DNA of 63,000 nt, the filler included, from Reclinomonas americana ATCC 50394 (Eukaryota): NCBI GenBank assembly GCA_048213135.1. It is 15 parts of 15 records of this genome, joined end to end, with 100 filler letters (N's around TTAATTAATTAA, not from the genome) between each part and the next. Parts side by side here need not be neighbours in the genome. Positions count along the whole stretch, not along the records: positions 1 to 15,122 come from AFZH01017705.1; positions 15,223 to 17,130 come from AFZH01017706.1; 13 more parts are not named here. One strand, written 5' to 3'. Made by a program: the position numbers and the translations under genes. This document shows, in pieces, positions 1 to 29,923 of this stretch. The notes beneath the pieces were generated by a model that ran no database searches, had not been told where the DNA came from, and saw nothing but the letters and a program-made list of their open reading frames with translations. Positions within the stretch are counted from its first letter, which is position 1. Each line of letters begins with the position of its first letter.

Positions 1-98
1 TGTGCCTCCGCCGACCCGAGACGGCAGACCGCTGATGTTGCCTTGTAGTTGTTGTTGGTGCAGCGCACGGTGATGATGGTGCCCCGAGCGCGCGCCAT
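1..98 (-). CDS. 5' end of an unknown gene (MARARGTIITVRCTNNNYK...), cut off by the window edge
   Basis: ATG at 98, 42 nt downstream of the HPS3 stop; frame is open to the edge; no recognisable motif. Confidence 0.3.
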   Translation of the reverse strand, partial: MARARGTIITVRCTNNNYKATSAVCRLGSAEA

Positions 99-140
99 TG
101 TCGGCCAGTGGATCACTGCCTGCTCGTCCAATTTCCAATA

Positions 141-3100
141 TTAGCGCCGCATCAAACCTACAAGAGTGCAGAGCGCTCTTTCTCGCGTACCTTGCACCTC
201 GCTGGCAATGGAGCGCCACATGGAAATCTCCTTGCGCGCCATAAAGCACGTCTCAATGTACGGCAAGAAGAACTGCATGTCGCCATCCTCCGGGAGCATC
301 TGCACGAATGCCGACGGTGCCACGCTGCGACACAAGTGCTCCAGGCACCGAATGTACGTCTTGCCACATCGGTCTCGTGCCTGCTCGTGGGTGAGAGTGA
401 GGGAATGAGGAGAGGGAGAGAAAAGAGGAGAGAGCGCGACGCACCGTGGCCTGCAGCTGCTGGTCGAGACTCAAACGCCGTAATCTCGTCAGGAGATCCT
501 TCCACGACTCGTGTGCCTCCTACAACCATCGGTGAGCAGAGAGAAAGCGGTGAGCTGCATGTGTGCTCGACACACAAACCTTGCCAAAGAACGTGCATGC
601 AATGTCGAAGACCAGTTCGCAGTGATCGGACTCGAGCAGCAGACTGAAAATGGCATCCATGGCACCGTCCATGGCCAGGCACAGCACGCGAATGGAGGTG
701 GCACCCGCAAACGGGGCGACGGCATCCAGGTCGCGCAGAATGTCGGCCGCATGCACTCGGTATCGGCGGGAGCCTGCTTGAGAGCCGCGTGGCAACGAGC
801 AGCGAATGAGGAAATTCTGCAGCTCGCATAGCGTCTGCGAGGGTGTGTCCTTGGTGCCCGTCGGCGACGCCAGCATGTCGAGCCACTGATATCGCTCCGC
901 TGTGGGCCGCAAAAGGTTGAGGACGCTCTCACTCGCCACCCTCGACTCCCATCCCTCCTCCAAGTCCTCGTTCGGTGAAGTGGCGGCGGACGAAGGACCG
1001 GCTGGGGCGGCAGCAGTTGCGACACGTCGACTCGTCTGCAGACATGCACACTTTGTCAGCAAGAGATGGCACATCAACGAGTCAGCATTGTGAAAAATAC
1101 AGGCACAGACCTCGACAGCATCCGACGCGGCCGAGCTGGAGGGCAGCAACAGACTCTCCAACACGTAGCTCATCGTCAGCGCATCGCTCGAGGAATCGTC
1201 CAGCACCTGCGACGACGACTGTATGACATGCTGGTCAGCGTGGTACGTGGAGCGCACACGCAAAAGTACCCACGCACACACGCAACAGATCGCGGTGTGT
1301 CTGTGGGTCGGCTCTGCTGCGATGCGAGCAGCACCACCAACAGGCGCGCAAACAATGTGCAGACGTCGGTCGACGTCAGACCGGCCTCCACATCTTCCCA
1401 GCCGCCTCCCACCGCGGCCAGCAGATACACCTCCAGCGGGCTCCTGCAAGCAAAAAAGACGAGAGTGAGGCAAGTCACGGTCCGGCCACACGCGCCAAGT
1501 GACGAGACCTTGGATTTTCCGGTGTGCTGGTCAGACTCATCAGGAAGAGTCCCACCGAGAGCGGAATGCGGGGATACAACTTGCAGCACAAGGAGCACAG
1601 CACCCACGGGGCGCACTCGGCCAACAGCTGACCCAAGGTGATTACGCCGACGTTCTGGAAGAGGCGCGTGAGATACATGACGAGGATGACACACATACAG
1701 TGGCTCATGGAAACCTCTTCGAGAAGCATGCGTGGCAACCGCGCATCGCTCTGCACCACCACATTGCTGAAGAGTCGGGCATCACTCGGCAGGTTGAACA
1801 GGCATTTGGAGAGTGCTTCGGGTTGCGCAGAAGTCAGCACAACCACGGGGTGGGACGAACACGGACAGAGAGAGTGCGTACCGATATCCGGCTCCCAGAT
1901 GCTCCGATACGTGCAGCCGAACTGCATTAGCAAGTGCTGGTCCAAATCGGTGAGGCACGAGGTGGCTGCTGCGGCATTGTCGATTTCCAGGTACATCAAG
2001 CACAATGCAAAAGCGTCGAGAGGCACCACGGAGCCCCAGTTGGGAAACGAGTGCGGCGCGTGCACATCGTCATCGAACCCCGAAAACGGATCGGCCGCAC
2101 GAGCCGTGGCTTGTCCACGCTGCGCACACGAACAGAGACGGTGAGAAAGCTGGATTTCGAAACGAGCTCGCAGCTACAACGCACCGCGCACAGCCGTTCG
2201 AGCACGCGAACACCGAGATCAGTCGACAAATGCGGCAACTGACTCTCCAAATACAGTGTCGACATTCGGTGTGGAAGGTGCGTGGCGTACAACTCGCACA
2301 CGCGGTAGCACAGAGTGGCATCGGCGTCGTCCAGCACCGACGTGTTCTGCGACAAGCATGAGCACACCTACAGCTCACGGAATTCTCCATGTGTGGCTCG
2401 CAACTTCCTTGTCGAACACCACCATCTCCAGGTAACCGAGCAGAGCCTCGGTGCGCCCGGCCAGGCGATCGATGACGTAGCCGAGTTTGCGGTTGGAGCA
2501 CGAGAAGAAAATGGCGCTCTCCGAGTAGTTGCCGGAGCGCAGATAATACTGGCAGCCGTGCACACGTGAGTTGCGGCGCTCAACGAGTGACACACTCTGC
2601 GCTGAGCAACAACAGACCTCGGCAATCAGGCCAGAGCTGCGGCGGAACAAAGCCAACAGGTCCTGTTCTTGCAGCCGAGACACCACGGTCTCTTGTTGAT
2701 CTGCTCACGCGATTTGAGTGGCAGTGAAGAGTGGAGGCCGGAAAACCAAAATGAGAACGCAACTCTCCGACTTGCGACCAAGGACGGTGTTCAGCCGGCC
2801 CTTGACCAAAAAGTGCGCCTCAAATAGCAGCTTGAAGTAGACCGTGTCTCCACTCTGCAAGGGCGCGCGACAGCAGATGATCATCAGGGCGTGCATGCCG
2901 GCGCCAGGCGCAGCAGCAGAGCAAGAGTCAAACCTCGGCATGCATCTCTGCACTCTCCAACATCTCCTCAAACATGCGCTCGACTGGCGCCAAGCGAATC
3001 AAGTAAAAGTTCCAGTTGGCCTCCTCGTGATCATCATCGTCCTCATCCACAGCTCCCACATCAGCGCTTCTGCATTCATCGCAGCGCGTGAGTCCATCAT

Positions 3101-6100
3101 CCGCACCGTAAGCAAGCAACATGTGACGTACATGTCGACACTCTGGTCCGCATCGCGCTTGCCACCATTGGGTGGAGGGGCGCGTGGTGTCGCCTGCACG
3201 GAAAAGATACAAGGGTAGGGTCGGTTACCGCCAGAAGAAGCATCCACACACACAGACACACAAGAGGAACCCACCTGCCGTGCCGGATCTCGTGGGGTGC
3301 CTGCGTGAACACACATACATGCACATGCGTGGGTGAGAGCGGTGTACACATACGCATCGATGCAAGTGCACCCTCCACCCACCGCTCTGCGACCCAAACG
3401 TAATCGACGATACGTGACCACGACCAAGCGAACTCACACCGGAAATGTCGGAGCAAATGAGATCTGGCAGGAGAAAAGTCGAATTTAGAGCGGCAGAGAC
3501 ACCCGATCGACGCGACACCAGCACACACCCCAGTTGCCACTGCCTTCGACGGCCGACGCGCGACCACGTACAGCCTCCATCACACCATCTTTTTCGGTGG
3601 GCGAACTCGGCTTGCCAAACACCGCGGCCACATGCACTCGCTCATCGTCGCCAAATCTGCCACCAGCCTGTCAGCACGTGCACACCAGCAAAACAAGGGT
3701 GGCACGAAGGAAAAAGCAGGCTCAACTTGCACAAGACCACGGCATGATCGTCGGTAACCGCCAGCTCCGAGATGCCAATGAATGGTCGAATGGAGACGAG
3801 CCACTGGCTGCTGCGCAGCGACCACACTTCCATGCCTGCACGCGACAAGTGTCAGTGGAAGACACGACTGGAAACAACCCTGCTCCGACAACTCACCGAC
3901 GGCACTGCACGAGAAGAGAAACAGCGAGTTGGCGTCGACGTGCACCGACTTGCTGGAGAATGTGTACTCGACGCATGGGTCCGGTGACAGCAGGTCGTAC
4001 AAGTAGCCCTTCTCCGCCGTCGCAAACAGGCACTTGGGAAACAGATGCGGGTTGTGTGGCAGTGTCACTTGACTCCCGCTGAAGCCTCGTGGTGAGGTGG
4101 CGCCTGCCGCCGAGTACCTCGCCGACGTAGCATTGGCATTTGTCGCCGATGGGGACATGGGGTTGGTGCTGGCCGACGTGGCCGACGATCGCAGTCCGCT
4201 CTCAAACAACTTGAGCGTATGAATCGAGGCTGGTCGACGGATTTTCCGATGCACGACCATGTGCACGACCACGATACTGCGAGTTCACGTGAGTGGACAA
4301 TATCAGTGACAGGAGACAAAGGGCAAAAACCGAACCCCACTCCCGAGGCCAGCGAGGAGAGCTGGTGACCGGCCTCGACGCGCGGTCCGCAAATCTCAAA
4401 CTCGCGTGGTCGCGTCGATCGCGTTCGTCTGCAGAGCGGGGTGAGTGGAAACACGGGATGGAGCGCGTGATGGCGTGGCAACTCAACTTTTCCAGTCGTC
4501 CAAGCATGCCCGAGCTCGAATCAATGGTCAGCTGACGATTGCGGTCAAACGCCAGCGTCACACACATGTCGGAGACCGTGGGCGTGCTGGGCTCTTGTCC
4601 CACATACGTCGGAGCACTGCGTCGTCGCTCGTGACTCGTCGGATTGCTGCGAGCCGATGTCACCGATGGACAGTACTGGCCGCTGAGCAAACTAAACGTG
4701 CATCCACCGCTGAGTCGCAAATCAACGTGCAACACGCGAACTTCATGATGCGAGCCGTATGCTGTGCGAGCGGCGACTAAGAAAATGACAAGCATACAAT
4801 TCCATGCAGGTTCTCCGACTCACCCACATAGGCGCCCACAACAGAGACGAACGACACGCGCAGATCGCACGTGTAAATGTCCAGCACCTGGAGTGGACTG
4901 CGTCCCACGCGATCACGGAATCGTTGTGCCAGCGCTGCGCAGAAATACGCATCGGTTGTTCAGCGGCTACCAACTGCGAACGACAGACAGATACATCACG
5001 CCCACTCACCCATGTTGCGGTCGAATGCTTCACGCTCACTGGCCGACAGCGACTCCTCCGGGAGCTGGAAACGAAGCACTCGCTCAATGTGCAAGTACCA
5101 CGCCACAGGATCCACTGCGCGGTGGTGAGCGACGAAAGCAATCACGAGCTGCCACGGAGTGCACGCACCAATAAACATGCGGACTCCAGACTTGTAGCCG
5201 ACCACGAGAATGCCCGAGGATGCATCGAGACCGACACACCGCGGGCTCATTGGCACGCGCAACGTGTCCACGCGAAGCGACAGGTCCGATCGCGGACTCT
5301 GCACACACGAAGTCAATGCAGAGCGCCAACAACAAGCCCGGCATGCACCGCACCTTTCTGCCATCAGGCACCGGCAGCGGCTCCGCACGACTAACAGCCT
5401 CCGACCACCACGGCTGCAACATCTCTGCAACTGCATGTGAGTGGCGGCACTGGCACAATGTCACTTGCATAAAAACACAGGAGCAACGCACGCTCAGTCG
5501 CTCTCCGGTCGAAATGATACACACGAACAACGCGCTCCGTGCGCTCCGCATTCTCCTCCAGCATAATCACACTAACAACGCAGCTCTCAGTGACAGACAG
5601 AGAGAGAGGCACACAGAGAGGCACACACTCACCCTCGTGCGCGTTCCAGACAATGCACTGAAATGATTCGCGGCCACGTGGTGCGGAACGAGTACAGAGG
5701 CACGTTGGTGTCAAACGGAGTAAACACACGCACTTCACCTGCACACACAGAGCATGAGACAGAGAAAGAGAAAGAGAGAGTGACAAAATGTGAGCAGTAC
5801 CTCCGCGCATCACATAGACTATAGTGTCGACTGCAGTGGCCACGCGCGTCGGCTCAGCAGGCGCCGACAAGATCCTCTGCTCATCCAGCACGCGAAAGTA
5901 CGGCAACGCAGTCGCACTCTGACACACACACACACACACAAATGAGCTCAAACTGCGCGCGTGTGTGTCTCTCTCACACACAGACCGGTGAGGTGACTCG
6001 ATGGTGGCCGCGCGACCTTGCGCGTTTCCGTTGTTTTGTGGCAGGTGGCAACTGCACGCGTCTCTTTGTGGAGGTGGTGTCGCCTTCTTCTCCTCCGCCT

Positions 6101-6231
6101 TCCTCATACTGCTCATCATCATCATCGTCATCATCGTCGTCGTCGTCATCGTCGCCTGCGTCGTCGCCTGTGTCGTGAGGAGGCGGAGAGAGGCCGCCGA
6201 CCTCGAGCGCACGCGGAGGTCGTCTGCTCAT
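141..6231 (-). CDS. HPS3: Hermansky-Pudlak syndrome 3-like BLOC-2 subunit (multi-exon)
   Basis: Spliced C-terminus SWKDLLTRL...YIRCLEHLCRSVAPSAFVQMLPEDGDMQFFLPYIETC resembles the HPS3 terminal motif (F..VLPEDG...FFLPYL..C). N-terminal exons resemble the HPS3 propeller (LEENAE..VVRVY; PMSPRCVGLDASSGILVVGY). TAA at 141-143; first exon has an acidic D-run. Confidence 0.75.
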
Positions 6232-6306
6232 ACTGACAGGAGAAAGAGTGGAGACAAATCACGGCGAGGACATCTGTGGGGGGTTCATTGGCGACATGTG
6301 CGACGT

Positions 6307-8074
6307 TCACAGCTTGGCTTGGATCTTGCCCTTGGTCAGCAGGCGGAGCAGCACTTTGGGGCCGTTGCCGAGCATCCACTGTGTATGAGAGCTGGAGTGA
6401 GCTGTGCGGCGAGACTACGAAGGTGACAGCGAATTGGGAGACCTGACCGCCGTCGACAATCATCAGCGTGCCTGCATGTGCGTGTGTGAGAGCAGAGGTG
6501 GACTGTGTGTATGTGTGTGCTGGTGGAGTGTGGTGCATCGTACCGGTTTGGTAGCTGGCGGCGGGGCTGGCCAGGAAGAGCGCAGCATCGCCAATGTCCT
6601 GTGAAAGGAGTGAGCGAACGACGGGAAGAAGAGCGAGTTGATGCTGGCGTGCAGATCGACCTTCTTTGTTCCTGTGCATCGTCGAGGGTGGAGTGAGTAA
6701 CGAGATGTCATTTCGTGTATGCAGGAGCGAGAACACACCAAAGCGAGCAATCGGCAGCGCCTGGATAAACGACTCGGGGACGCCAGGCAGCAGGCGAGAG
6801 GCACCCTGTGCACATGCACATGAGTGTCTTGGCAGCACGACAAAGTACCAACTGACGGCGCCTACAATACCTCCGTGTCGGCAATGAGACCCGGTGCAAT
6901 CTACAAGCCGCACGGAATGTAAAACACGACAAGCTCGACCACCGTCACAAAGCACGATCGCCACGCCACGTACCGCGTTCACTCGCACGCCAAACTCGCC
7001 CCACTCGTTGGCCAGAACTCGTACCTGCGCAATGCATTCAACGACAAGTCGGCGATTTTCTCATACACACGACAACAATCGCACCAGCGCATCGCACGCG
7101 GCCTTGGCGCTCGACACGTGCAACTGATCCGGCATGCCCGTGTAATGCAGCGTCGCACTGATGTTGATGATATTGCCACCGTTTGCCTACGCACTTGTCA
7201 GCATAAAACGACCACGCTGCAACGAAGCGGAAGACGCGCCTTCATCCACGTCTCGAACGCGGCCTTGGAGCAATTCCACGTTCCCAACTGCACAGACCGC
7301 AGCGTTCAATCGCGCGTGTTTGTTTGATTTGCTAACAAAAGGAGCACTGTCTGTAACGCACCGTGTCGATCTCCATCACCGTTCTGCATATATGATGCGT
7401 GTTTGGCGATCGTCAGTGAGATGCATCAGTTAGTTGCTTGCTTGCTGGCCTGTTCAACGCAACTTGAACGCGTTCGACGAAAGCTTCTCTGCAGCACACA
7501 AGAAGTTCCCCGCTGCTCCATTGATCAGCACATCGATGCGGCCGAGCTGGTCCACAGCAAAGCGCATCACACTGTCGACGACTCACTCTCAGTCACACAC
7601 TAAGAACAGACTTGCAAGTGACACACGCACTCAACTTCTGCACGCTCTCATAGTCTCTCACATCGGCCTGCACATAGACACAGCGACGACCGGGCACTGC
7701 AGCCTCGAGCTCACTGGCTGCACGCTGCAGCACATCAACCTGTGTGCACACACACATTCAGAGAGAGACTGCGCGCGCGTGTGTTAGTGTGTGTGTGTCA
7801 CCTTGCGCGAAAAGATGCAGGCGTTGGCTCCGTGCTGGGGTGTCATGCAGTGAGTGATAGTGGCAAGGAGCGAGAGAGGCAGAGAGAAGGAGAGAGAGAC
7901 CTCCATGAAGAGCTTGGTGATGCCATAGCAGATGCCGGTGCCTCCTCCAGAGACCACCACGACTTTGCCGGCGAACAGATCGCGACGGAAGCAGCTCTGT
8001 GACGAGTCAGTGAGTGACTGAGAGCGAGAGAGAGGCAGAGAGGGAAGGCGATAAACCTCCTCTGCTGATGACAT
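6307..8074 (-). CDS. DECR2: Peroxisomal 2,4-dienoyl-CoA reductase (SDR family)
   Basis: Spliced motifs [65 protein letters not shown]; ends KIQAKL-TGA (PTS1). Confidence 0.92.
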
Positions 8075-8388
8075 TTCGTTGTTTTCTTGCAAGTGCAAAC
8101 TCCGTCCCAATGTCCGTCGTTTGTTGGGGAGTTTCGAAGTCCGTCCGTGCATGCACTCTTCTTCTTCTTCTTCGTTCATCATCGTGGAGAGTAGCCTGTT
8201 GGATCATCGCTCTTCGCGTAACAGTATTCCTCTCACCGAATTCACTCCATAAACATCTCCTAAAGGTACAACAACTTCTCTATCACACACACTTGTATGC
8301 ACACCTACCTGTACATGTACACACTTCCCCGTTAGTAGTTATACAACACACAATTAGAAAAAAAGTAAAAAATCCCCTCCTTCTCCCA

Positions 8389-11300
8389 TTACGACGACGG
8401 CACAATGCGCAAGGCCAGCACGCTTTCCACGACGTGCTCCGGCTGGCACACCTCCACTGCCATGTGGAGTCCGCGAGTGGTGCTGGACGGATCGCGCGGA
8501 CTCTTGGCGGTACTCGATGCCCGGCGGATGTGCACGCCGGTGAAACAGGCTCCCAGGCCGACGTCGTTGATGAAAAACTGGATGGTACCGGCGGCCAGGT
8601 CGAGCAGCACGCCCACGCGGTCGCCCTGTCCAAATGCACGCCCGTACTGCCAGCTGCGCCCGCTGTGGCGAGCCTCACCGTCGCTGGTGAAGGCTGCGCA
8701 AGCGATGAGGTGAGACGGCGTCGACGACCATGTAGTTCAGTGTTTGTATTACGTACCCCAACTGCTCTCGTCGGCACCGATCCACGAGTCGAGATGCACA
8801 CTTCCGTCGCCGTAGCACACGCCCACCTGTGTCACGATCATGATCGTGGTTGAGAAGACCATGGAGTGTTGGCACTGTGTAATACACATACCGCCACTGG
8901 GTGCATCTTGATGGTCGACACCACGCGAAACTCGACATACAGCGCTCCAGTGGTGACGGTCGGCGACGCAAGGGCGATTCCTCGACCACCACGACGCTTG
9001 CAGCTCACTCGCAGACCGCCGGTCTGGTCACGCGCGCGCATACAAATGAGAAGACCATCGACGCTGAATGAAAATCAATGTCGCCTTGCCAAAAAACACA
9101 CCGACACATCCAGCCGCTTGCCGGCCAGCTGTGCACTAAAGTGCAGCAGCGGTGCCTCCGCGGTCTCTGTTCCACGAGGGAACGAGGCAAGTCGGCTCGA
9201 AAAGACACTCGCAGGAACCGTCAGCAGCGAGTCGCGCGGAGTAAACCATCCATCACGCCGAGGACTGGAAAGATCGCGCGACGCTGATCGCGGACTGCTG
9301 GTTGTGCGCATCCCCTCGTCAGCTTCACAAAACAATATCAGAGCACACGACACAACCTTCCACACACACCTTGGTGACTCGGGTGAATGACTGCGTCCAC
9401 TGCAAAAGGTCCACGAGTGAGTATAAACAAAGCAAAAGGCCCTCCACAAGCAACGACTCACTTGGCGACAACATCGCCCTCCGACGCCATGCGCAGCGGC
9501 AGCTGCAGGCGTGGAACGACGGATGGTGTGGCTGGTCTTGCCGGCGCAGAGGATGTTGGTGAATGCGACACCGAGTTGGCGGTGGCCGAGTGTGACTCGC
9601 CGTTCTGGTGCACCAGCTGCGACGTCACCTCCGGCCACTGCAATTCGCCATCCTCGACCACAGTGCACTCGTTGGCGAGGTGTTCCACCTGCAGCACACA
9701 GAGTGAGCTGCGAGCACTCCCTACAGCCATCTTCGATGATCGCACTCACCAATGTTTCGCCGCGAATGCGCATAAACGCCGCCGAGCGTGGTAACCTAAT
9801 CGGTGGCGTCACACGTCGCACACATTCAAACAGCGAGTTGACCTGCTCTCGCGACAAATCGTAGCCCTCCGCGTGGAACATTGCAAACAGCACAATGATT
9901 CGAATGGCATTCTCCTCCGTCTCTTGCGTGGCCGGTCGACGTGCAGCACGCAGCAGTCGATACCTTGATGCAAAGCATAAAAACGTTGTGAGCCCCAAAG
10001 CCACAAACACAACTCACCCACAAACGCAACAGCCAGTCAAAAGGCAGCGCTCCGACAAACGGCTGGCAGGATGCGTCGAGCAGACCCACAAAAGTCTTTC
10101 CCGGATTCTTGCTGGCCAGGTTGGCCAGCTGGTCGAGTGCATTCGGCCACCCTCCACGACGATAGTGACACACATACACAAGCGGAGCAATATCGACAAG
10201 ATCGACCTCGCACCCTCGTGCGAGTGCAGTGAGACGCTGCAGATCTGCACTCGGGATCTCGTTCAACGTATCCGAAGCCCACCGTTGGCGCACGTAAGTC
10301 GCCACCGCCGAGGCGTGCTCGTTGCCCACTTCAGTCCGGCACGACGGGTGTTGGAGAACCTGTGGCGACAATGACGTGAGAAGTGAGTGGAGACAGATAT
10401 GCAGAATGAGATACTCACCGCCAACAGCTCGTCAAGGGTGAGAAAGCGCAAACGTGCGTCACGCATGAACTGTGGGAGCCCCTCGGCGAGCACATCGATT
10501 GCCTTGTCGTACAGTGGAAGCATGAGGGGGGAGTAGGAGCTGGCCTGCCGCATCATCCACACCGGGTGCAGCTTGCCACTCTTCAACAACGACTCCATCA
10601 GGCGCTCCAGCACCGTGCACAGCTCGTCGCACTCAATATCGTCGGCCAACTTCAGCAACGCGGGCAGGTACACACGAGGGCACTTGGCCATGGCCTTGTG
10701 ATTGGAGAGAGGGGAGATGAGCGCACAGATACACGCATAAAGCCTAGCCTTTGACAAATGTGGACGCACCTCGTGCCGATAGGAGAACAACTGCCGGTCG
10801 ATGCAAGCCAGCACCACATGGAACACGCCGTGTGGATCTCGGATACCAATGTCGACTTCGTACGCCGGCTCGTCGGCGTGCTCGGTAAACGCCATGCGCA
10901 GCTTGCGACTGAAGCGCGAGACGAATGCCGGATGGCACTCGTGCAGCACTCGAAGCCACTCGTCGACGGTGCGCCGCGGCGTGGTGCTAAACATGTCGGC
11001 CGCAGCGGCAAACGGTCCACTGGCGGGCACGTACACAATGACGGCCGGGTGGTCGGCCGACACTTCGCGTGCGTGGGGCATGTCGACCTCTACAAACTGC
11101 TGCGCATCCGGAGCTGCAGACAAGCACGTCAGAAAACGCGGTCGCTGTCGCGACGGAGAATGACAACTAACCTCTGTCATGCGCGGCACGAAGAAGCCGT
11201 CGTGCTCGCATCTGCGCACCACTGTGCAGCAGCGTCGGTGGGAGGGCCGATTTCGAACCGGACGACGAGTACACGGGTCGTGCGGTCGGTGGCGGCGCCG

Positions 11301-12656
11301 GCTCCGCCTCCTCTCCCTCCATGAACGACGGATGCAGCGATGCACCGGTGAAGCCACCACTGGCGAATCCGCGCATGGCTGTCGCTCTTCTGCGCTCGGC
11401 GATCTTCTGCTCCTCGAGAAGCCGCTGACGCTCCTCCTCTTCCTCGTCGCGCTTCCGCGAGCCGGTCTCCTTGGTAAGTTCAACGACTGACGGCACTGGC
11501 GAGAGGCCGCGTGAGCGTCGTGGCGAGAGTGGCGGCGGCACGGCTCGACCCGCCGACAAGGCCACGCGGTGTGGCGAGGGTGGTGGCGACGTTGGGTCGG
11601 CCAGCGGGAATACACGCGGACTCGAAGATCGCTCCTCGTCGTAAAACATTTCTACAGGTGCAGCCGAGCGAGCGAAACGCGGCGACTCCGGTTCCAGTGG
11701 CAACTCTGGCTCCGCGGTGCCGAGTGTCTCAGTGTCGACCACCACAGCGGGCAGAAACAGTGGCGACACGGCGCGACTCGGTGGCGGCGTCATGGCGGGC
11801 GTGGGTGGCGCCGAGGGTGGCGGTGAACCGTTCTCAAGTTCCGGTTGCATCACCAATTGATGTGAAGAGCAGGGGTCGGAGGGCAGTGGTGGAGGCCATT
11901 CGGGAATGGCCTCCAATCTGGGGTTGGGGGGCGATTAGTTGAAGGACAAGGGAAGAGACCAGGCAGATAACACAACTGCAAGTGTGCCATGGTGATGACC
12001 ACTGGCGCAGATTCACGAACTGCACTGTTGGCGTCGGCAACGAGATCGTTGGGTGGCGGTAGCGGGGAGCAACTGACAGAAGGTGCAGCTGGCGTCGCGG
12101 CAGCAGGCAGCGACATGGGAAGCGGATCACGCTCAATGCTCTCGTCTGTGTGTGCGCGCGTGAGTATACAACAAATCACATACCCATGAATGATGGTGAG
12201 AGCTCACCATCGACGGCAGGTACTGGCGACTGTGCTCTTGGTGAAGCCATGGGCGTGTCGATAGGCGACGGTGCCAAGGTGGCCACCACAGCGACACTCC
12301 CAGTATCGGTGTAGGCGTCTGCGGCCATGGCCGGTGGCAAGGCGATGGAGCTCGCCTCGTCGACCGCTGTGGCCGCGGTCTCGGTCTGCGTGTCTGCAAT
12401 TGCTTCTGTCGCCGCATCGTCCGCCGGTTCGGGCAGCAGTGGCTCCACAGGAGTGGTGGCGTACGGCGGCGGCGAAGCGACCACTGGCGTGGGCGACACT
12501 TGCGGCACCTCTGTGGGGGGCATTTCGGGCGACGGCGCTTCGACAAACACCGGCTCTGGTGGTGGGGTGGCGGGCAGTGATAATGGTGGTGCAGGCAAGG
12601 CACCTGCGCGCGAGGGAAACGCATGAGCACACTGCGAAAGCCACAGAGATAGTGTA

Positions 12657-12690
<34 letters not shown>

Positions 12691-12727
12691 GTCGGTGAGC
12701 ATTTCTGGAGGCAGCAGCGGTTTCATG
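8389..12727 (-). CDS. Pro-rich N-terminus, BTB/BACK-like region and C-terminal SPRY domain
   Basis: LLKLADDIECDEL...LPQFMRDARLRFLTLDELLAVL is BACK-like; LYVEFRV...YGRAFGQGDRVGVLLDLAAGTIQFFINDVGLG is SPRY; start codon uncertain. Confidence 0.6.
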
Positions 12728-12827
12728 TCATCGAGTTGCAATCCGCGTGGTCTCCGCCGTGAATCAAGGCTGGCAAAACGAGGCGAAAAGCTGCACACAC
12801 ACACACACTGTGAGATCAGCACGTCTT

Positions 12828-13919
12828 TCAATCACGGTACAACGATGCGCACCAGGAGCACTCAATGAGTCCGCGCATCGCCACCACCATGAGTACGGGA
12901 TTGTCGGGAATGAGGGTGATGGAAAAGGCGGTCTGCCGTATGTCCTGGATGGTGACCACACCGTCTCGGTCCATGAACACCTCCAGCCACGGATGAATGT
13001 CGTACAGCGGAGACACTTGCACGCTGTGCCGACAACAGCACCACCATCCACCGGTCGCGTAATCCGGATGCTCCCAGAACGAGTACGCCTCCGGCAGCAC
13101 GTGCAACTCGAACGGAAAACTGGCAGGGGCGGAGGTGAGGGACAGCGAAACATGCAAAGACTGCTGCACCGATACAAACCATTTCTCCACCACCTCCGCC
13201 GCATCCACATGCCTGCCATTAGCGTGAGTACAGCACTCAGTCACCGACACTGGCGGTAGAAAAAAGCTACGCAACGCATCAATCCCCGGCAACACCAGCT
13301 CCTCCCCGCCCAGCACCAGCGCCATTGTGGCAAATCCATGTCGCAGGTACCGTTGCAGCAAAAGAACCTCGTCCGGTCGCACCACACGCGCCGCTTGCGC
13401 CTCGACCACCAGTTGCCGCACCAGCTGCTTGCGCAACGATCGCAAATCGTGTTCCAGTCGGCCTCCCATCTGCAGCACAAAAGACTGATTAGAAGGAGAA
13501 GGAGGAAGAGTGAGGGAGTGAGAGCATCAATGCACACCGATCGCGGAAACAGGTCATCATCGTCGTCGATGATTTCCAGTCGTGAAGGCGGTCGGAAGCC
13601 GTGCGGCAATGGCTCCACGCTGCCGACCGCCGTGGCACGTCGATATCGACTCGGCGGCACAGGTACCACCGAGGCCAATGGCGATGACGTGGCGGTGGCC
13701 ATGGTCCGTGACCAAGGCGAGTCAACGACGATCCGCTCCCCATTTTCGTCGACATCATCATCATCATCATCGCTCAGTGATCGCTGAGTGAGAACGAATG
13801 GAAGTGATTGTGACTGATGTGCGTCGGTGGTGATGAGACTGGCGTTGAGGAGATGCGTGGGCGGCGATGGAGTCAGCGAGAGATGTGGATCGGAAGGTGC
13901 GACTCGGCTGCTCATCATG
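12828..13919 (-). CDS. Hypothetical protein (low-complexity N-terminus, globular region of about 200 aa)
   Basis: Long open exons 13919-13530 and 13470-12828 with protein-like composition; family not recognised. Confidence 0.5.
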
Positions 13920-14109
13920 ATTCTTCTTCTTCTTCTGTTGCTGCCTCCTCCTCCGCCGCACGTGTGCTGGCATGTACCGGAGACGCGTGCAGTCACACGC
14001 GCGTGTGTGCGTGAGGGGTGTGTGGCAGAGTCGGAAGTTGAAAGATGAGACGCCGGACAATTGCCGTATTCACGACGTCGATATCGGGGCGCAACAAAGA
14101 AGGTGATGA

Positions 14110-17014
14110 CTACGTCCAACCCTGTCGCTTTTTGACCAGTAGACTTTGACTTCCTAGGCTGCCAAGGGTCAAGGGTTCGAGAGTGAAGAGCACGAGGGTC
14201 GCGACGTCAACAGTTGAGGCATAGTAAGGTTGCCGTTGGAATGCAAGCGAAGAGGAGACGTAGGTTGCCGAGATCACGCGCTCTTCGACAAAGACATGGT
14301 CTTTGGACACAGCAAGATCTAACACTTTTCATTATCACTATACCCGCACGTACACCAGATAATCTGCGTCCAACAGAGTGAGTACCGCGAACGAATTGGA
14401 ATACAAAGTGAGGCGAAGGACGACGCACGAGGAACGGCAGTGGGATCGGGAATGTGCTCGCCCACGGCAGTCGCCTCCGACACGCGATGCACTCGCTCGT
14501 CGTCCATCACCAGCCACGTGCGCAGGCTCGGCGGTCTGACGTACACAAAGTTGTGACCGTCCAGCTCGAATCCCGTGTGCATAATGACGCTGCGCACAAG
14601 GAAGAAGAGGAGGTGAGGAGGAGGGCCAACTCCCGCATTAAAGGAGAATACGTAACGCTCGCAGCTCGTAGCGTGCATGCATCGGCTCGGCGCCGCCACG
14701 GCGAAAGTACAACATGGGTGGTCGAATGAAACCCTGGCCGCGCGAACAGTGTTTCTGCGTCATTGCAGATGGTGAGAGAGCGCAATGAGACACCATCATT
14801 CGCGCACGCTGTGCGAACACACCTTCCGCAGTGCGTGCTCCGTCACGTGCTCCATAAAACTGGCGCTCTCGTACCAACCAGTCACGAAACAGCACAACAC
14901 CGGCGGCATCTCCCACAGCAGCATCACGTGACTGCCACCGACCTATTCACACTTGCGCATTCAGCATCCCCAAATAGGGTAGAGTGCACCGTTGAGCGCT
15001 ACACACTCACCATGTGAGGCTCTTCCGGTGGTCGCGCATCGTCCCACATGGTATCCGTACATTCGACGCCAATCGCCGCGTTGAGATAAGGCGCTAGCGC
15101 CCGAACCAAATGTCCTTCCTCANNNNNNNNNNNNNNNNNNNNNNNNNNNNNNNNNNNNNNNNNNNNTTAATTAATTAANNNNNNNNNNNNNNNNNNNNNN
15201 NNNNNNNNNNNNNNNNNNNNNNTGCACTGGCACGTACTCGGTGTGCAGCATGGTCTGTGCGACACATTGGTGAGCACAACGTGCATGACTCACGGGTCCA
15301 GCCACACGCTCGCACCTGCAGCACACACGCGGCGTAGCAAATGGAGCCTGTGGGATTGTGCAAGCCGCGGAATGGCATTTCGTATCGCGGCACATGACGC
15401 AGTGGAAAGTCGGCCATCACCACCACCGGTCGCAACTGTCGCACCGCCGCGGATCGCTGATGTGCGCGTGACAGAGCCGCAAATGCGCCGTCACCAGCAT
15501 GCGAACTGCACGCGAAGACAGCAACAACACGAATGAGAGAACAAGCACGACCACCGTGAGTGCAAGAGCTTCCACGAACCTGCCATCGTCGGGAATTTCG
15601 ACGCGCACGAGAGCCTGCGGTACTTGCAACGTACGATTCTCGCCCTCCTCCCACGTCAGATCCTTCCACGCTACCTCTGCGCGCGCACCTCTTGCGGTGC
15701 ACACGGCGTACTTGTATCTGGATGGAAGAAGACATAAGCAGCGAGAATGAAGAAACACATCTCCACGGCCAACGCAACTGCGCAGAACCGTCGTCCACGG
15801 CAACCGTGGGTAATGAGACACAGCAGTGCCACACTCCGCCGTCGCCCAGTGGCGCCAGTTGAATGCCGGGTGGTGAACGGCTGCCCCAGCAACCTAATCC
15901 GACACAAGTGAGCTTGGTGTGCAGGAACGGACTCCGTCACAGCACATGCACACACCAAGTGGCTCCAGTGTTCCTTGCAGCACCACCACTGGCCACTCAT
16001 CGTCGCCACGAGCGTGTCGCACCACTTGTGAGCACTGCACACGAACATACGTCGCCACCTGCACGTGGACTGATTCAGCGACACCAGCGAGGGCTGGAGC
16101 GGTCGGAAAAACCACACAAGCACACACCAACGACTCATCGCCCAGTTCATCCTCCGACATCATCGACACAGTCGCCAGCACTTCATCCAGCGACACTTGC
16201 AGCTCCGACGATCGCCAAAACTGTGCACGCGGTGAGTCGCTCGGAGTAATAGGACCATTATAAACACCGCAGCGCAACATTCTCCGCGCCAGACTCCACC
16301 CAATGATCGCGAATGACAACTGGCCAAGACAATGAGTGCGCGCACCAACCAAACATAGGAGGGGGAGGAGGAAGAAGAACGCACAAGGCGACAAAACGGG
16401 CGTGGCGACCCACAGCGACTCATGTGCCAACAGTTCCCGATCGAGACCATAGGCACCCTCCCAGACGCATCCATCGCCTCCGTCATGCTCTTGTTGCGCC
16501 CCCATCACACAGTACTTGTACACCACCAGTGGTAGCGCAGCAGTGTCGGCGAACTCCTCCGCGTGATCATCCACAGTGAGCTGCACCTCGCTGTTTGTTG
16601 TCCACACAGAGCGAGTGAGTTGTCTTTCTCTTCTCTCTCTCACACACAGGCTCTCAGGCTCTCTGTTCTCTCGCTCTCTGTCCCTCATTCTCTCTCTTTA
16701 TCTCTCTCAATCTCTCTCTCCCTCTTTATCTCTCTCTCTCTGCACTCAACTCAGAGGTCCACCAGTCACCCGCACTCCAGTGCAACTGCACTGCGCTTTC
16801 GTGTGGATTCCACGAGAGAGGATGCGAGGTGTGTGTGCGAACACTGCCCAACTCGCCACACAGTCGCACCTTTGCAAGCATCATGTCAGAGAGAGAGAGT
16901 GAGAGAGAGAGAGAGAGAGAATCACAGTGTATGTGGAGAAGTACATGTGCCCACCTCTTGACCAAAGGCCACAGCGCGTTGAATGCACCAACGCACTCGG
17001 TACACTCTCGGCAT
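14110..17014 (-). CDS. Tandem CBM20 carbohydrate-binding modules fused to a USP (peptidase C19) deubiquitinase; spans the gap at 15123-15222
   Basis: CBM20-1: VRWCIQRAVAFGQEVRLCGE...SWNPHESAVQLHWSAGDWWT...YKYCV...VWEG..DREL. CBM20-2: VVLQGTLEPLGCW...GVWHCCVSLP...QYKYAV...WEEGENRTL. USP Cys box GLHNPTGSICYAACVLQ, His box GHNFVYVR..WLVMDDERV. TAG at 14110. Confidence 0.72.
15123..15222. other. Artificial contig linker N44-TTAATTAATTAA-N44 (first of 14; others at 17131, 26988, 29924, 34431, 36478, 40058, 44062, 46806, 49858, 52038, 54075, 56293, 61105)
   Basis: Identical 100-nt spacer each time, with stops in all six frames. Confidence 0.98.
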
Positions 17015-17848
17015 TGCAGCAGTCAAGTTGTCAGGCACGGACATAGGCTCAAATCCGTTCAACTTCGACAGTGGCGACGAGCACGCAAGGCATGCACAGG
17101 GCAAGCCTCGTACACCGCTGCTGCGTGATTNNNNNNNNNNNNNNNNNNNNNNNNNNNNNNNNNNNNNNNNNNNNTTAATTAATTAANNNNNNNNNNNNNN
17201 NNNNNNNNNNNNNNNNNNNNNNNNNNNNNNTAATTCGCATACTACGTACACGGGCGCAACTGCAGCATCCTCGGCGACGCAAAAGTGGCGCATCTTGCAG
17301 CACCTTGGCACTGTGCTCTCCAGCTTGCCACTCCATTGCACCTTGTCGGGCGGCGGAGGCAAGGCGCTCTTGGCCAACGCCGGCGACCATCGACACTGAT
17401 AGAACTCCACCACCGAGCTCATATCCTCGCGCGTGCCCTCCTGCACCAGCCGCTCCACCATCGATCGCACATGCCACCAGACCATCACTGGAGGCACACA
17501 TCCCGCCACGAAAACCCCACTCAAGATCCACTCTAGCGGCCACTGAGCGACACGTGAGTGAGTGAGGCACAGCAGAGTGTGTGTTGCACGCTCACTGACC
17601 TCAAACTGCCACCACATGACACTGGCCACTGCGAGTATGAACGCATACAGACGCGCAATGTGCCACGTGAGGAACATGTGACGGGTGACCAGTGCAGTGA
17701 GCTCGCGCACTCCCGACGACCACACGCGCGTGCATTCGCCATTGTCGCTCTCGTCCACTGCGCACTCTCGCACGCGAAACAATGCAGAGGAGGAGGACGA
17801 AGAGGAAGGCGAGGATAAGGTGTCGCTTAGGCGACGTCGGCTCCTCAT
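17015..17848 (-). CDS. NAT8/camello-like membrane-associated GNAT acetyltransferase (middle part lost in the gap)
   Basis: FRVREC...TRVWSSGVRE, hydrophobic hairpin, EDMSSVVEFY, HFCVAE; after the gap AAAVYE|LNGF matches GNAT motif B (A..LY...GF) via a GC-AG intron at 17106-17063. Confidence 0.6.
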
Positions 17849-17907
17849 TCTCTTTTTATGACTGACTGTCACAGAGGACACTCACTCAGTGGACTCAGTG
17901 ACAAAGA

Positions 17908-18213
17908 ATGGAGAGCGAGGAAGAGGAGAGACGCATGCGCAAACGCGAGCTGCTGGATGGCATTGCTGTGGTGCGCGCCCTTTCTCCTCTCACACACACA
18001 CTCTCTCTCTCTCTGTTCTCTCACTTGTGCATGCAGGGTCTTCATCGCACTGCGCAGCACATGAACCAATTGCATGTCAATCTGCGACAAGTGCTCACCA
18101 ATGCACAGGCGATTGAGCGGGCGGCTGAGGCGTGGCTCTCACTGGTGCGCGACATCAATGTTCATTACTTGACAAGCTCGTCGTCGTCGGTGGCGTCGAG
18201 TGCGGGCGATTGA
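17908..18213 (+). CDS. Small helical protein resembling a DASH/Dam1 complex subunit (Dad1/Dad4-like), 79 aa
   Basis: Two exons (17908-17970, 18037-18213): RKRELLDGIAVGLHRTAQHMNQLHVNLRQVLTNAQAIERAAEAWLSLVRDINVHYL; heptad pattern and terminal W as in Dad1/Dad4. Confidence 0.5.
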   Translation: MESEEEERRMRKRELLDGIAVVRALSPLTHTLSLSLFSHLCMQGLHRTAQHMNQLHVNLRQVLTNAQAIERAAEAWLSLVRDINVHYLTSSSSSVASSAGD

Positions 18214-24022: not shown

Positions 24023-26596
24023 TCATTCTCTTGCTGTGGGTCTCGGGCGCTTCGTGCCGGCCACTTCTGTCTTCCGCGGTCCGCGCTTACCGCCGCCACC
24101 ACCTCTGGTAGCTCTGTCGCCCATGCCGCTAGAATACGACCTGCTTCTCGATCGGTCCTTTTCGCCACCTCCACTGCGTCCAGTGCTTTCGTTGATAAAG
24201 TGCCTGCATAACGGAGAGTGAGCGTGTCGGCACGATTGCATAGTCACTGCATTCGCTGCGCTCACCGCTTCCTCTCGGCACGCTTCAGATCCCAGTCGGA
24301 GACGGCGGAGATATTGTCGCGCTTCACCGGGAACATACTGCGCTGCTTCTTGACCATGCCACTGTGACAATTGGCGAAGGAAGTGAGACGGTGCGCGGTG
24401 ATGGCTCACAGGTCGCGCCACGCGTGCGTAACTTGGGTTTCCGCAGCTGCAACATCCAGTCGGGCACCTCGCAGCCACTCGATTGCACCACATTGACAAT
24501 CGATCGCAGCACCTCCGCATCCTCGTCGGTGAAGAACGTCACAGCCTCGCCCGGGCGGCCGGCACGACCCGTTCGACCTGCGCGCATCAAACAGCAGTCA
24601 GATCACCAGTCCATCGGTACTCTCCACAATCTCCACCATCTTCCTCACCAATGCGATGAATGTAGCTGGTGGCCGACTGTGGGAAATCATAATTGATCAC
24701 CAGCTGCACTCCCTTGAAATCCAGTCCTGCACGGCGGAGTGAGACGATGACGACGCGTCACCACCTCCCACCACTGCGCACACACACCTCGCGACAAGAG
24801 ATCGGTGGCCACCAAGAACCACGTCTTCCCTCGACGGAAATTCGCCACAGCCTCGTCGCGCTCCCGTTGCGAGCGTTCCGCATGAATCACATCCGTGCTG
24901 AGACCCTCATACGCCAACTCCTGGTACAGCTGCTTCGCACGGTCCACACTTTGCACAAACACAATCACTGGCGGCCGCACTCCCTGCGCAATCAACTGTC
25001 GCATGGCCAGCAGTTTGCCATCCTCCCGTCCGACGTAGACGAGACGCTGCTTGATGGACTCATTGGCCGTGTTCCTGCACATGCACGCACGTCAGCAAGG
25101 TCACGACAGCGACAGGCACCTGCTCGTGCGTGTGTGGAGTCGTAACTTGTAGCCCACAATGACGCGCACGGGATCCACAAGGAACGAACGCGCCATCTCC
25201 TCCACACCAGTCGGCAGCGTCGCAGAAAAGAGACTGCGCTGAATGCCCGTATTCGAGCAGGCATGAATGATCTCGTCGACCTGCTCCAAAAAGCCCAACT
25301 CGAACAGCTTGTCGGACTCGTCGAGCACCACACGCTTCACACTGTGGTGCGTGACAGTGAGTAAGTGGGTGCAAAGGGCACGGCATGGTGCAGACGTGCG
25401 AAACTTTTGCAGCTTGATCACACCGAGACGCAAGAAATGCGCCAACTTGAGCGGTGTGGAGATTAGAATGTCTGCATCGCGCACACTCTTTGTGAGTGCC
25501 GTGGATGTTATTGCAGAGGGTGAAGAGATAACACACGCAAACCTTGCTTCTTCGACGACAAGGTCGCACTCGACGTGCTCTTGTGGGTCAACAGACAGAT
25601 GCGCCACTTGCGACCGCGTGCAAAGTGCACACACTCGCGGTACGTCTGCTCCGCCAGCTCACGCGACGGCGACAAGATGAGCGCGCGGAAGCCTTCCTCG
25701 GCCGGCGCCTGCAGTGCCACACATGGTGAGTGACCTTGAGATGAAAAATGATAAGAGATCGCAAGCGTGCATGCCTTCAAACTGGCCAGAATCGGCAACA
25801 AAAACGCCAACGTCTTGCCGCTTCCCGTGGGTGCGCAGGCCAGCAGCTCGCGCCCCGCAAAGATCAACGGAATCGCTTGCATCTGAATGGGTGTCGGCTC
25901 GGTGAAACCCCCCTCACGAACATTGCGCAGCAGGTAGTCCTTGAAGCCGAGTCTGTCTCTCCCAATGAGCACGCGACCAGCCAACCAGAAACGCACACCG
26001 CCCGCATGTGTACGCACTTTGCCAGCTCATCAAACGACGAAATCGACAACGGCACGTCGTCGCCTTGCACCTTGACACGAGCACGTCGTTGCAGACCTTT
26101 GACCTGCACAAACATCAATACCCTGTGCTCCTGCCGAGGTCGACGCATCACACAACGCAACGTGCTCCAGCGACAGCGCATCACTCAACCGCCTCTTCTT
26201 GCGCGCAGGCTGCTCCTCCTCCTCCTCCTCCTCCTCCTCACTGTCATCATCACTCGACTCCTCATCTTCCACCTCCTTCTCTTTCCGCTCCCGACTCGTC
26301 GGCAACGTCCCAAAAAAGTCCAACTCGCGCTCCGCCTCCGCCGACAACGCAAACGGATTCGCCTGCAGCTCTTTTCGCGTCAGTCTCGTGCGTGTGCGCT
26401 TGTGCATGTGAATGTGCACTTGCGACAAAACACACACACACACCGTGCCTCGCTTTCCTCCGCCTGCACTCGACTTTGCCGCAGTCGTCGTTGTTGTGGT
26501 AGTAGTGGTAGTGGTAGTGGTGCTGCTGCTGGCTGCGGCAGTCGCACGATGCTTGTTGAATCGCGCGCCACGTGCAAGCGTCGCGAACAAGTCCAT
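24023..26596 (-). CDS. DDX52: DEAD-box RNA helicase DDX52/ROK1
   Basis: [100 protein letters not shown]. Confidence 0.93.
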
Positions 26597-27124: not shown

Positions 27125-29923
27125 ATGGCACAGCTGTTGCGTACCTCTCGTCACTTTCAATATTCTCATTCTGTTATCTCACGTGAAAAATCATCTCGTG
27201 TGCAGGGATCACCGCCGCGTGCCATCTCCATGTTGCGCAGCTTGCGTGACTCGGTGCGTTCGTGGAAGCAGGACGAACTGGGCATTGCTCCGACGCGAGC
27301 GAGCCACGCTCGGTCACGCTCGCCTTCCCCCGACTTTGATCGCAGCGGCGGCAGCGGCCTCATCTCCTCTGGTGCCGCCAACGGACACGCCAGAAAAGGA
27401 AATGTGCGAATCGATGGCTCTGCACGTCATAGTGAGATGGTCGACCCTTACCGCATGATCCAGCAGCGTGTGCGTGGCGAGGGCCGCGATCGTGATCGCT
27501 GGGAGGATGCCAACACGCGCTCGGCGCTGACGGCACTGGCGGCGAATTCGTCGGCCGACATGGCGTTTGCGCTCGAGGAACCGCTGAGCCCGTACGGTCG
27601 CAAGGACGCCGAGGTGTATCAGCCACACGACAAGTTTGCCGACATGCCCGAAGGTTTTTTTGCATGTATTTAAGTGTCTTTTGTTTTTTCTTGGCGAAGC
27701 TCACCCCTCCCCCCTCCCTCTTCGCAGCGTCTCCGTTTGACGCCGAGTTGCGGCAGCGTGAATTGGAGATTGAGCACCTGCGCAGCACGATCCGGGCCTC
27801 GTCGGGCAGCTCGACGCCGCGCTCTCGGACGCCGACGGCCGATCTTTTGCGCGACGATGCCGGCAGTGGCGGATTTGTCGGAGCCAGCGCCGCGGCGCCT
27901 GCTCGTGCTACAGCCGGCGGAGAGCGACCGAATGAGACCCTGGCGAGCTTCATGCAGTCACGCTCTACGCAAGGCGGACCTCAACAGCAGCAGCAGCCAC
28001 CGCCGCAGTCGGTGCACTTTGACTCGAGACCGCAGTCGAACCTCTTTGGTGGTCCGGCCGAGTTTGGTGGCAGCGCACGGCCGCAGTCAGCCATGTACGC
28101 CGACCAGGCATATCAGCCACAGCCGCTCAGCCAGCATTTCGACGGCAGCGGCTACCCGCAGCACGCGGACTCACGGCCTCCGTCGACCATGTATCCAGAG
28201 CCGAGTGCGCACGGTGGATCACGGCCACAGACGGCCATGTATGCGGACCCTGCGCACCAGCCGCAGCCCATGAGCCAGCACTATGGTAGCAACGGATACC
28301 AGCAGCCGCAGCCAGAGTCGCGACCGCCGTCGGCGATGCACTTTGGACAGCCACAGTCTGGCCAGTATGGTGGTCCTGCCGACCAGTCCCGTCCGCCGTC
28401 GGGCATGTACGGTGAACCGCAGTATCAACCGCAACAGCAGCCACCGCAACAGCCTCAGCAGCCGCCACAGCAGCCGCCGCAATCGATGCGATTTGGCCAA
28501 GCGCCGCATGATGCACAGTACCCACCGCTGGCTGCTCAGCCACCCTCCCAGCAGCAGGCGCCACAGGCGCTTCCGTCTGGTTACCGCTTGCCGCCTGGCG
28601 ACATGGGTGGACAGGCCGCCGATGAGCACTCGCACCACAGCCACCCGAGCCAGCGTGCTGGTGCGTTCCAGCCCGTTGCACCTCAGCCGGACCACCCGGC
28701 GTACCCGGGACAGCAGCCGGCGCCTGCCACGATGCCGCCGACGGCCGTGCCCTACGATCCAAGAGTGCACGAGGCGCTGTTTGGTGGCCCGAGCTCGCAG
28801 CCACCGATGTTGGCACCGGAGGAGCATCACGACGCGGACGACACATCGAATGACATTGCGGGCGCCCCCGACCGATCACACGCCTCGGCGCTCCACTCGC
28901 AGGCGGAGGAGACGAATAATGCATTCGAGGTGCACTCCTTGAAGGCGCTGTACGCTGGCGACTGGCTGTGGAAGCACCAGTTCAACAAGAAGGTGTCGCG
29001 TGCCAAGCGCTGGGTGCAGCTCTCACCCGACGGCAGCGTGTTCTCCTGGGGTTCCTCCAAGGGCTCCAAGTCCTCAACTTGTTGCGTTGCGCTCCCCGCT
29101 TCGTACTTGCTTTGTTCCACTTCCACTCATTCTTTTTTTGCATTATACGCACAGTGCCGGTGAACCAAATTCAGCAGCTGCATTTTGGTGCACAAACGGC
29201 CGTGTTGCAAGCGTGGTTCGCCGACAAGCGTCGTGAGGGCAAGCCGTATCACGCCTTTTCTGTGCAAACCGAGAAGCGCACGTTCGACTTTGTGGCCATG
29301 AACGATGTGCAGGCGACGACCTGGTTTATCGGTCTGCAAGCCATTGTGGTGCCCGACAAGCGACTGGTATGTGCATTCTGGCGACAATCCATTCGTGTGT
29401 TTCCCAGCCGTCTCATCGACGCGATTCCCCTTTTTTTCTTCTTTTGTAGCGCTACACCCGAGCTGCCGTATTGTGGCAGCGTGCACGCATGAAGCTGGAG
29501 GAGCGAGCCGAGCAAGTGGGCGAAACCAAGTTGATTGTGCTCATGCGCGAGATCGTGGCTGCTGGCGAGGCCGAGCGTGCCAACCGTGGACAACCGTGGC
29601 AGTTTATGATGCCGGATGGCGGTGGCTGGTCGCAGCCTGTGCCGCAGGCCGTGGCTGCTGATATCGGCATGCAGCCGGCGGTTTCGCTGCCGTCGGCATC
29701 GATGGGTGGTGGCCCTGCGTATTCACCTGCACCGCTCAGCGCTGGCAATGTCGGCGCCTACAGCGGCTACGGAGCGTACGGCGCAGGTGGCAGCGGCCCC
29801 ATGATTTCCGACGTGCCCCCAGCGCCCGCGTCGCAGTTTGGCTCGTCGCAGCCGGCGGCGCCCGCACAGGGTCCCTCGACGTGGGGTGGCAGTGCCCAGC
29901 AGCAGCAGCAGCCACAGCAGCAG
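27125..29923 (+). CDS. P/Q-rich repeat protein with a PLC-delta/Mcp5-type PH domain (3' incomplete)
   Basis: AGDWLWKHQFNKKVSRAKRWVQLSPDGSVFSW...VPVNQIQQLHFGAQT...AFSVQTEKRTFDFVAMNDVQATTWFIGL. Confidence 0.7.

Follow-up and report, generated by a model that had tools for sequence, protein, structure and literature searches.

Could a cell carry an enzyme that removes ubiquitin from its own storage-sugar particles and holds on to them with sugar-binding modules of the same chain? The question is raised by a gene of the eukaryote Reclinomonas americana ATCC 50394 (GenBank assembly GCA_048213135.1). It lies in the window analyzed here, a stretch of 63,000 nucleotides (nt) in which contigs are joined by fixed 100-nt spacers. 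An earlier note on this DNA had proposed a deubiquitinase with two CBM20 modules. By scripted, coordinate-based splicing of the genomic DNA, we obtained a 15-exon model on the minus strand (17014-14338) that contains one assembly gap and has the order CBM20-CBM20-linker-USP. The CBM20 and USP parts very probably form one polypeptide. We put at about an even chance the reading that the CBM20 pair would dock the enzyme on the cell's own glucan particles, where it would remove ubiquitin from bound enzymes or from the glucan and oppose a CBM20-RING protein of the same genome. The parts and the logic, CBM20 targeting of ubiquitin machinery, are known; what would be new is the eraser side, in one chain.

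The CBM20 modules

A CBM20 profile (A3) was made in-house from six other CBM20s of the same assembly; it matches 44 CBM20-bearing sequences of the PDB. On the spliced model it finds exactly two domains, of 11.9 bits (amino acids (aa) 14-91) and 17.9 bits (aa 197-275), against a best score of 5.4 bits among 1000 shuffles of the model. The two CBM20-like modules of the earlier note are thus upheld, and they lie where it had put them, though not as single blocks: each is spread over three to four exons. Home-made profiles were built because Pfam saw only fragments below its cut-off on unspliced exons. A genome-wide search for the CBM20 family did not pick up the gene.

The sugar-stacking site 1 of STBD1 consists of W293, K322, W334, and N339 (PMC11406230). 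Its equivalents were placed by profile column for the first Trp and the Lys and by motif for the last two residues. Module 2 has all four (W210, K248, W268, N273) and module 1 three of the four (W40, K85, W103), with Asp110 in place of Asn339. Such canonical residues point to ordinary alpha-1,4-glucan, a polymer that the host itself produces. The Trp-Lys-Trp(-Asn) pattern is shared with STBD1, GPCPD1, and DPE2 (PMC11406230, PMC9069913), and DPE2 likewise carries tandem N-terminal CBM20s (PMC9920598). In these proteins the partners of CBM20 are an autophagy motif, a phosphodiesterase, and a glucanotransferase, whereas here the partner is a protease.

The USP domain

The catalytic boxes lie where the earlier note had located them. 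The Cys box reads GLHNPTGSICY (Cys codon 15339-15337), the His box reads GHNF (His codon 14555-14553) with the H-x-G-x4-G-H spacing kept, and the Asp motif reads MDDERV (first Asp codon 14504-14502). The model also has an Asn at the oxyanion position and, in the His box, the His upstream of the catalytic one. A profile of six paralogous His boxes scores 24.3 bits against 8.5 for the best shuffle. Support for the Cys box comes from its conservation in a distant metagenomic relative, P0001, with 26 of 59 residues identical (44%) over linker and Cys box. For the Cys-box region, the ESM Atlas returned UCH clusters at 0.85-0.89, which we treat as a lead only.

The Cys box contains a one-residue insertion that is shared with two metagenomic USPs (L099, L112). 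These lie at L099:479-520 and L112:1891-1932, both on the minus strand, with no CBM20 in the DNA covered; L112 also has a His box. A complete USP includes a Gln-Asp-x-x-Glu box in its thumb and fingers, and that region falls in the assembly gap here. By comparison with paralogues, the hidden middle of the domain would measure about 110-150 aa; the distance from Cys to the next helix is 147 and 176 aa in two of them. By descent the domain is a predicted USP-fold protease, one that lacks two hallmarks of canonical, ubiquitin-specific USPs.

One polypeptide across the assembly gap

The gene spans two contigs of the window, 15223-17130 and 1-15122. Its upstream part has 10 exons and 365 codons, starting with the ATG at 17014 and reaching the end of the contig at 15223, and its downstream part has five exons and 171 codons, from 15121 to a stop codon at 14340-14338. 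The extension to 14110 assumed in the earlier note was not borne out. A single contig carries both the CBM20s and the Cys box, so that the link between them depends on splicing only. The 74-nt GT-AG intron at 15579-15506 is exact as the note had it, in frame, and both of its ends are shared by the second haplotype, with four substitutions within. All 13 introns of the model are GT-AG and 58-160 nt long, and in the second haplotype (contigs C3442 and C3443) both ends of each are conserved.

The His box lies across the spacer from the Cys box. Both flanking contigs break in mid-exon and carry complementary halves of the domain, both haplotypes break at the same point, and the assembly holds no further close copy of the His box apart from the allele. 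The second scaffold has seven contigs that correspond, with the same order and orientation, to seven successive contigs of the window; three of these were matched first, followed by four of ten tested. No window match was found for the other six tested contigs, for two contigs beyond, or for a 528-nt contig (C3440) between two collinear ones, the last suggesting that the spacers hide short real sequence. The final 18 bases of contig C2239 are found at two places, the ends of the allelic contigs, and no third contig has them; gap filling with P0001 as query matched only the two allelic places. We infer the join across the gap from these observations.

The two alleles differ overall by 25 synonymous and two non-synonymous changes. 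Between the haplotypes, the N-terminal part has 13 synonymous changes and one non-synonymous change in 365 codons (ratio of non-synonymous to synonymous polymorphism (pN/pS) 0.025, binomial p about 1e-7), and the C-terminal part has 12 and one (pN/pS 0.026, p about 3e-7). The first exon after the spacer (15121-15011) alone shows seven third-position differences. No indels separate the haplotypes in exons; their introns differ by 75 substitutions and many indels in 962 bases. Purifying selection on the gene is strong, including on the C-terminal lobe. The allele pattern, with few non-synonymous changes and no exon indels, therefore supports both the choice of exons and a functioning gene.

Occurrence of the architecture

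A full HMMER search through 1.84 billion proteins matched P0001 alone (E 1.7e-4). It is a singleton from a 1368-nt ENA contig, with the order CBM20-linker-Cys box as in the spliced model. The two share 58 of 180 residues over the stretch that begins with the second CBM20 and includes the Cys box. It keeps the W, K, W, and N of module 2 plus the Cys and Asn of the Cys box. Its first 125 residues, which lie outside the stretch used to find it, score 14.0 bits against the second CBM20, narrowly above the best of 2000 shuffles (10.7); the margin against the CBM20 profile is also narrow (9.8 bits, best shuffle 8.8). An AlphaFold model of P0001 has a pLDDT of 32, too low for the model to be used. 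As judged from these predicted proteins, the architecture is known from two occurrences.

Other searches returned no homologue. Because all queries were exon fragments, these blanks are weak. A word-index search with the open reading frame (ORF) 15224-15936 gave none among 2168 candidates, alignment A1 nothing beyond P0001 among 3181, and the His-box exon none among 57. A metagenome scan with A1 (259 candidate stretches) and a viral scan (37) were equally blank. Among PDB sequences, neither the His-box exon nor A1 had a real match; only designed Pizza repeats came up. A degenerate Cys-box DNA pattern matched 42 metagenome loci, two of them USPs as judged by eye and profile, none with a CBM20 or the linker. 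Among the matches listed by the ESM Atlas, which covers clusters of 50 or more, no cluster combined CBM_20 and UCH.

Alpha-glucan genes and a CBM20-RING gene

The source assembly (108 Mb, 16,441 contigs) is that of an intron-rich eukaryote with many loci in two copies. As lineage markers, an actin exon scored nearly alike against many actins of the PDB, and a profilin search was blank, as were its controls. Since a GT5 synthase, phosphorylases, and further CBM20 genes are present, this genome makes alpha-glucan. The GT5 glucan synthase gene is split by introns and occurs in two copies (C365, C129), as does each of two phosphorylase genes (C5509, C1112/C1113, C139, C156). A genome search gave no match for a GT3 glycogen synthase, by which absence is not shown. 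In one further gene, which we take to be of DPE2 type, a CBM20 is followed by sequence like the start of a 4-alpha-glucanotransferase, where the contig ends (C4029:1323-1708; also C5150). Another gene has three CBM20s (C4533 and C4421, about 5975-7200); over the part that was read, it shows no obvious catalytic domain, and it is possibly a glucan adaptor. Contig C2 is probably a bacterial genome inside the assembly: it exceeds 1.69 Mb, its GC content is lower (47-49% in the parts read), and its glucan genes are long and uninterrupted.

Contig C927 carries, at 6940-8727 on the plus strand, a six-exon gene with GT-AG introns throughout. Its 435-aa model has three CBM20s and a C-terminal C3HC4 RING (Pfam zf-C3HC4_3, E 4e-12). 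Two of these CBM20s were part of profile A3, which makes their scores circular; Pfam passes them independently. The allele on C2460 differs by 17 synonymous and nine non-synonymous changes over the first four exons and by two in-frame insertions, and its RING exon was not found. The C927 product is a plausible candidate for a glucan-docked E3 ligase, the writer counterpart of the CBM20-USP protein. Alternatively, the CBM20-RING gene could be one product of general domain shuffling.

Possible functions

The product would be a single cytosolic protein of roughly 650-690 aa. Its two N-terminal CBM20s would dock through their site-1 tryptophans on the cell's own alpha-glucan particles, either glycogen or amylopectin-like, and its divergent C-terminal USP would remove ubiquitin there. 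The likeliest substrates would be particle-bound enzymes (synthase, phosphorylase, DPE2-like transferase) and, less likely, the glucan itself. RING ligases usually modify lysines. For this reason, and because the sugar ligase HOIL-1L is an RBR enzyme forming oxy-esters, protein substrates are the safer guess. By opposing the 3xCBM20-RING ligase of C927, the enzyme could set the turnover speed of the particles or of their enzymes. Together, the two genes suggest a dedicated on/off ubiquitin switch on storage-sugar particles. That the protein binds glucan and is catalytically active, that its tag is ubiquitin, which substrates it has, and that it works with the RING protein are our inferences from the DNA. 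The earlier note had proposed a deubiquitinase targeted to glucan granules; its architecture holds, and the idea of targeting gains support from the site-1 residues, the alpha-glucan enzymes, and the CBM20-RING gene, while the eraser role, the substrate, and the localization stay conjectural.

A number of observations count against this mechanism. The Pfam CBM_20 matches on unspliced exons stay below cut-off at E 0.013-0.058 (the best single-exon score, for exon 8, one of the five CBM20 exons, is 15.7 bits at E 0.013; the gathering score is 23.3 bits), as does UCH on the His-box exon (E 0.0039, 17.3 bits, cut-off 23.9). The Cys-box profile of seven paralogues gives 2.0 bits where shuffles reach 4.1, and is not significant alone. 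More than 100 residues of the USP middle are hidden in the assembly gap, and the two scaffolds compared come from a single assembly, so that the match between them, though good evidence, is not wholly independent. No physical link joins the RING gene to the USP gene. P0001 is the only relative in so large a scan, and is a probable read-through of introns at matching places, judged from its protein only. Point mutants of the RNF213 CBM20 sugar site left recruitment unaffected (PMC11549300), so glucan is not necessarily what such a module acts through in ubiquitin machinery. Further points concern the contacts with ubiquitin. The finger-tip CxxC is absent, and the catalytic Cys-Tyr is followed by Ala, not Asn. 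VTGW occupies the aligned column of the L-K/L/N-R-F motif, in which R-F is found in six of six aligned paralogues; the K/L/N-R-F motif before blocking loop 1 grips the ubiquitin tail. The catalytic His is followed by Asn (GHN), in contrast to Tyr (GHY) in all 14 paralogue boxes checked. In USPs specific for ubiquitin, the corresponding Tyr bonds Leu73 of ubiquitin; the SUMO protease USPL1 has Phe instead (PMC8983731). The triad, which according to the earlier note looks intact, is present in its Cys, His, and Asp. Looking intact does not amount to activity on ubiquitin, given these replacements and the unseen middle of the domain. Because the ubiquitin-gripping residues are altered, the enzyme may act on a ubiquitin-like tag or be weak.

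It is possible, if somewhat unlikely, that the fusion and its glucan targeting are as described and the USP is specific for a ubiquitin-like protein, as USPL1 is for SUMO, or is a weak or pseudo-enzyme adaptor. The changes at the His box, the KRF-type motif, the finger tip, and the Cys box favor this, and in USPL1 a change at the Tyr after the His accompanies SUMO specificity (PMC8983731). All five key residues of the boxes are kept, however, with Cys and Asn kept also in P0001; the C-terminal lobe is under strong purifying selection, and the altered Cys box has its insertion in common with the two metagenomic USPs. More doubtful is a bolder version, in which writer and eraser form a self-contained glucan-docked pair and the altered cleft would be a specialization for what sits on the polysaccharide itself, either ubiquitin in ester linkage to glucose or a dedicated tag of the ubiquitin-like kind. 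We likewise regard as improbable that the CBM20s recognize damaged or foreign glucan (polyglucosan, or glycogen from prey or endosymbiotic bacteria), with USP and RING tuning an RNF213-like coat for xenophagy or quality control. RNF213 is indeed a CBM20-bearing E3 that coats pathogens (PMC11549300), the contig C2 probably brings a bacterium into the assembly, and quality-control and catabolic ubiquitination of glycogen have been distinguished (PMC13345935); but the CBM20 half has one non-synonymous change in 365 codons, unlike the positively selected CBM20 of RNF213, and canonical site-1 residues fit ordinary host-made alpha-1,4-glucan. Least probable of all is an artefact of scaffolding or splicing, in which the Cys-box and His-box contigs come from different genes or the CBM20s are separate from the USP. 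A gap of undefined size inside the catalytic domain would allow it. It is opposed by the single contig that joins CBM20s and Cys box through in-frame GT-AG introns in both alleles, by P0001, where CBM20 and Cys box share one open frame, and by the complementary mid-exon halves, the lack of another close His box, and the seven collinear contigs. The reading that we prefer remains removal of ubiquitin by a protease docked on the host's own glucan.

Relation to known systems

The known links between CBM20 and ubiquitin, laforin-malin and RNF213, are all on the ligase side. A natural CBM20-USP beside a CBM20-RING is a candidate eraser. Laforin brings malin to glycogen (PMC9844227). In that system the CBM20 belongs to a different protein, a glucan phosphatase, and the ubiquitin enzyme is a RING-NHL ligase, whereas here two CBM20s are in one chain with a USP-type protease. 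Like the CBM20-USP protein, RNF213 combines a CBM20 with a ubiquitin enzyme in a single chain (PMC11549300). It is, however, a giant AAA+/RING/RZ ligase with one positively selected CBM20, whereas the protein described here is a small protease whose two CBM20s look canonical and are under purifying selection. With the USP family (Peptidase C19, UCH PF00443, including USPL1) the protein shares the His box, the Asp, the order of the boxes, and the key residues of a putative Cys box; it differs in its ubiquitin-tail contacts and its N-terminal CBM20 pair.

Glycogen is ubiquitinated in vivo in tissues, being a major substrate in mouse liver, and this drives its lysosomal delivery (PMC13345935). 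The same source describes HOIL-1L as an RBR sugar ligase that forms oxy-esters, reports that OTULIN cannot cleave the ubiquitin-glucose bond and that USP10 and USP21 were tried on ubiquitin-sugar substrates, and expects pathway-specific ligases and deubiquitinases for glycogen, still to be identified. The HOIL-1L/LUBAC and OTULIN system is similar in that ubiquitin is put on glycogen and its level is influenced by a deubiquitinase. It differs in that HOIL-1L had to be recruited to glycogen with an engineered CBM20 dimerizer, and no glucan-docked deubiquitinase appears in the sections covered (PMC13345935).

A survey of 74 animals describes three CBM20 clades, and the word "ubiquitin" is absent from its main text as covered (PMC12913940). 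In the literature searched, titles and abstracts contained no CBM20-deubiquitinase or CBM20-RING architecture; subscription reviews, supplementary architecture tables (e.g. of PMC12913940), and InterPro lie outside this scope. The CBM20-USP architecture is thus provisionally undescribed, in agreement with the earlier note. If the preferred reading is true, glucan-directed ubiquitin control is not limited to animals. In the more doubtful version, with a cleft specialized for a tag on the polysaccharide, the enzyme would count as a natural "glycogen deubiquitinase", and purpose-built enzymes for the ubiquitin control of storage glucan would have arisen outside animals. The protein could also serve as a tool to strip ubiquitin from glycogen or polyglucosan.

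Gene model and neighboring genes

The features of the gene are summarized in Table 1. The donor of intron 4 is ambiguous (16278 or 16299). The intron after exon 5 contains a 2-nt indel between the haplotypes and hence is not readable through. In haplotype 2, a stop closes the CBM20 frame upstream of the ATG, which supports the start at 17014, and another CBM20 protein of the same genome starts with the identical four residues.

Table 1. Features of the CBM20-USP gene and their positions in the window
Feature	Position	Strand	Content
Exons 1-4	17014-16955, 16869-16751, 16590-16385, 16319-16279	minus	Start Met and first CBM20 (model aa ~3-136)
Exon 5	16220-16128	minus	Acidic linker separating the two CBM20s
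Exons 6-8	16058-15956, 15893-15779, 15717-15580	minus	Second CBM20
74-nt intron	15579-15506	minus	GT-AG; second CBM20 to linker in frame
Exon 9	15505-15316	minus	Conserved linker of ~45 aa, then USP Cys box with Asn342, Cys348, and a one-residue insertion
Exon 10	15254-15223	minus	Runs into contig end
Spacer	15123-15222		Artificial 100-nt contig joint over the middle of the USP domain
Exons 11-13	15121-15011, 14942-14823, 14754-14657	minus	USP fingers/palm
Exons 14-15	14589-14429, 14363-14338	minus	His box, Asp motif, last strand, stop

Just upstream of the gene, a conserved minus-strand ORF with hydrophobic stretches (17846-17231) enters a spacer; its DUF7758 match (E 0.019) is below cut-off. 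Direct fusion to this membrane-protein ORF was rejected, as the CBM20 frame is closed by the haplotype-2 stop and both remaining frames run into stops ahead of the ATG; an upstream splice into a stretch of it may still be conceivable. The genes neighboring the CBM20-USP gene are unrelated to it. A short coiled-coil ORF at 17905-18210 (plus strand) has a weak match to the DASH/Dam1 subunit Dad2 (E 0.035, below cut-off). Among the 94 window ORFs scanned are exons of a DEAD-box helicase (25104-26026, minus strand), an exon of a short-chain dehydrogenase (6149-7060, minus strand), and a DUF3648 match (E 1.5e-4) at 27674-28270 on the plus strand.

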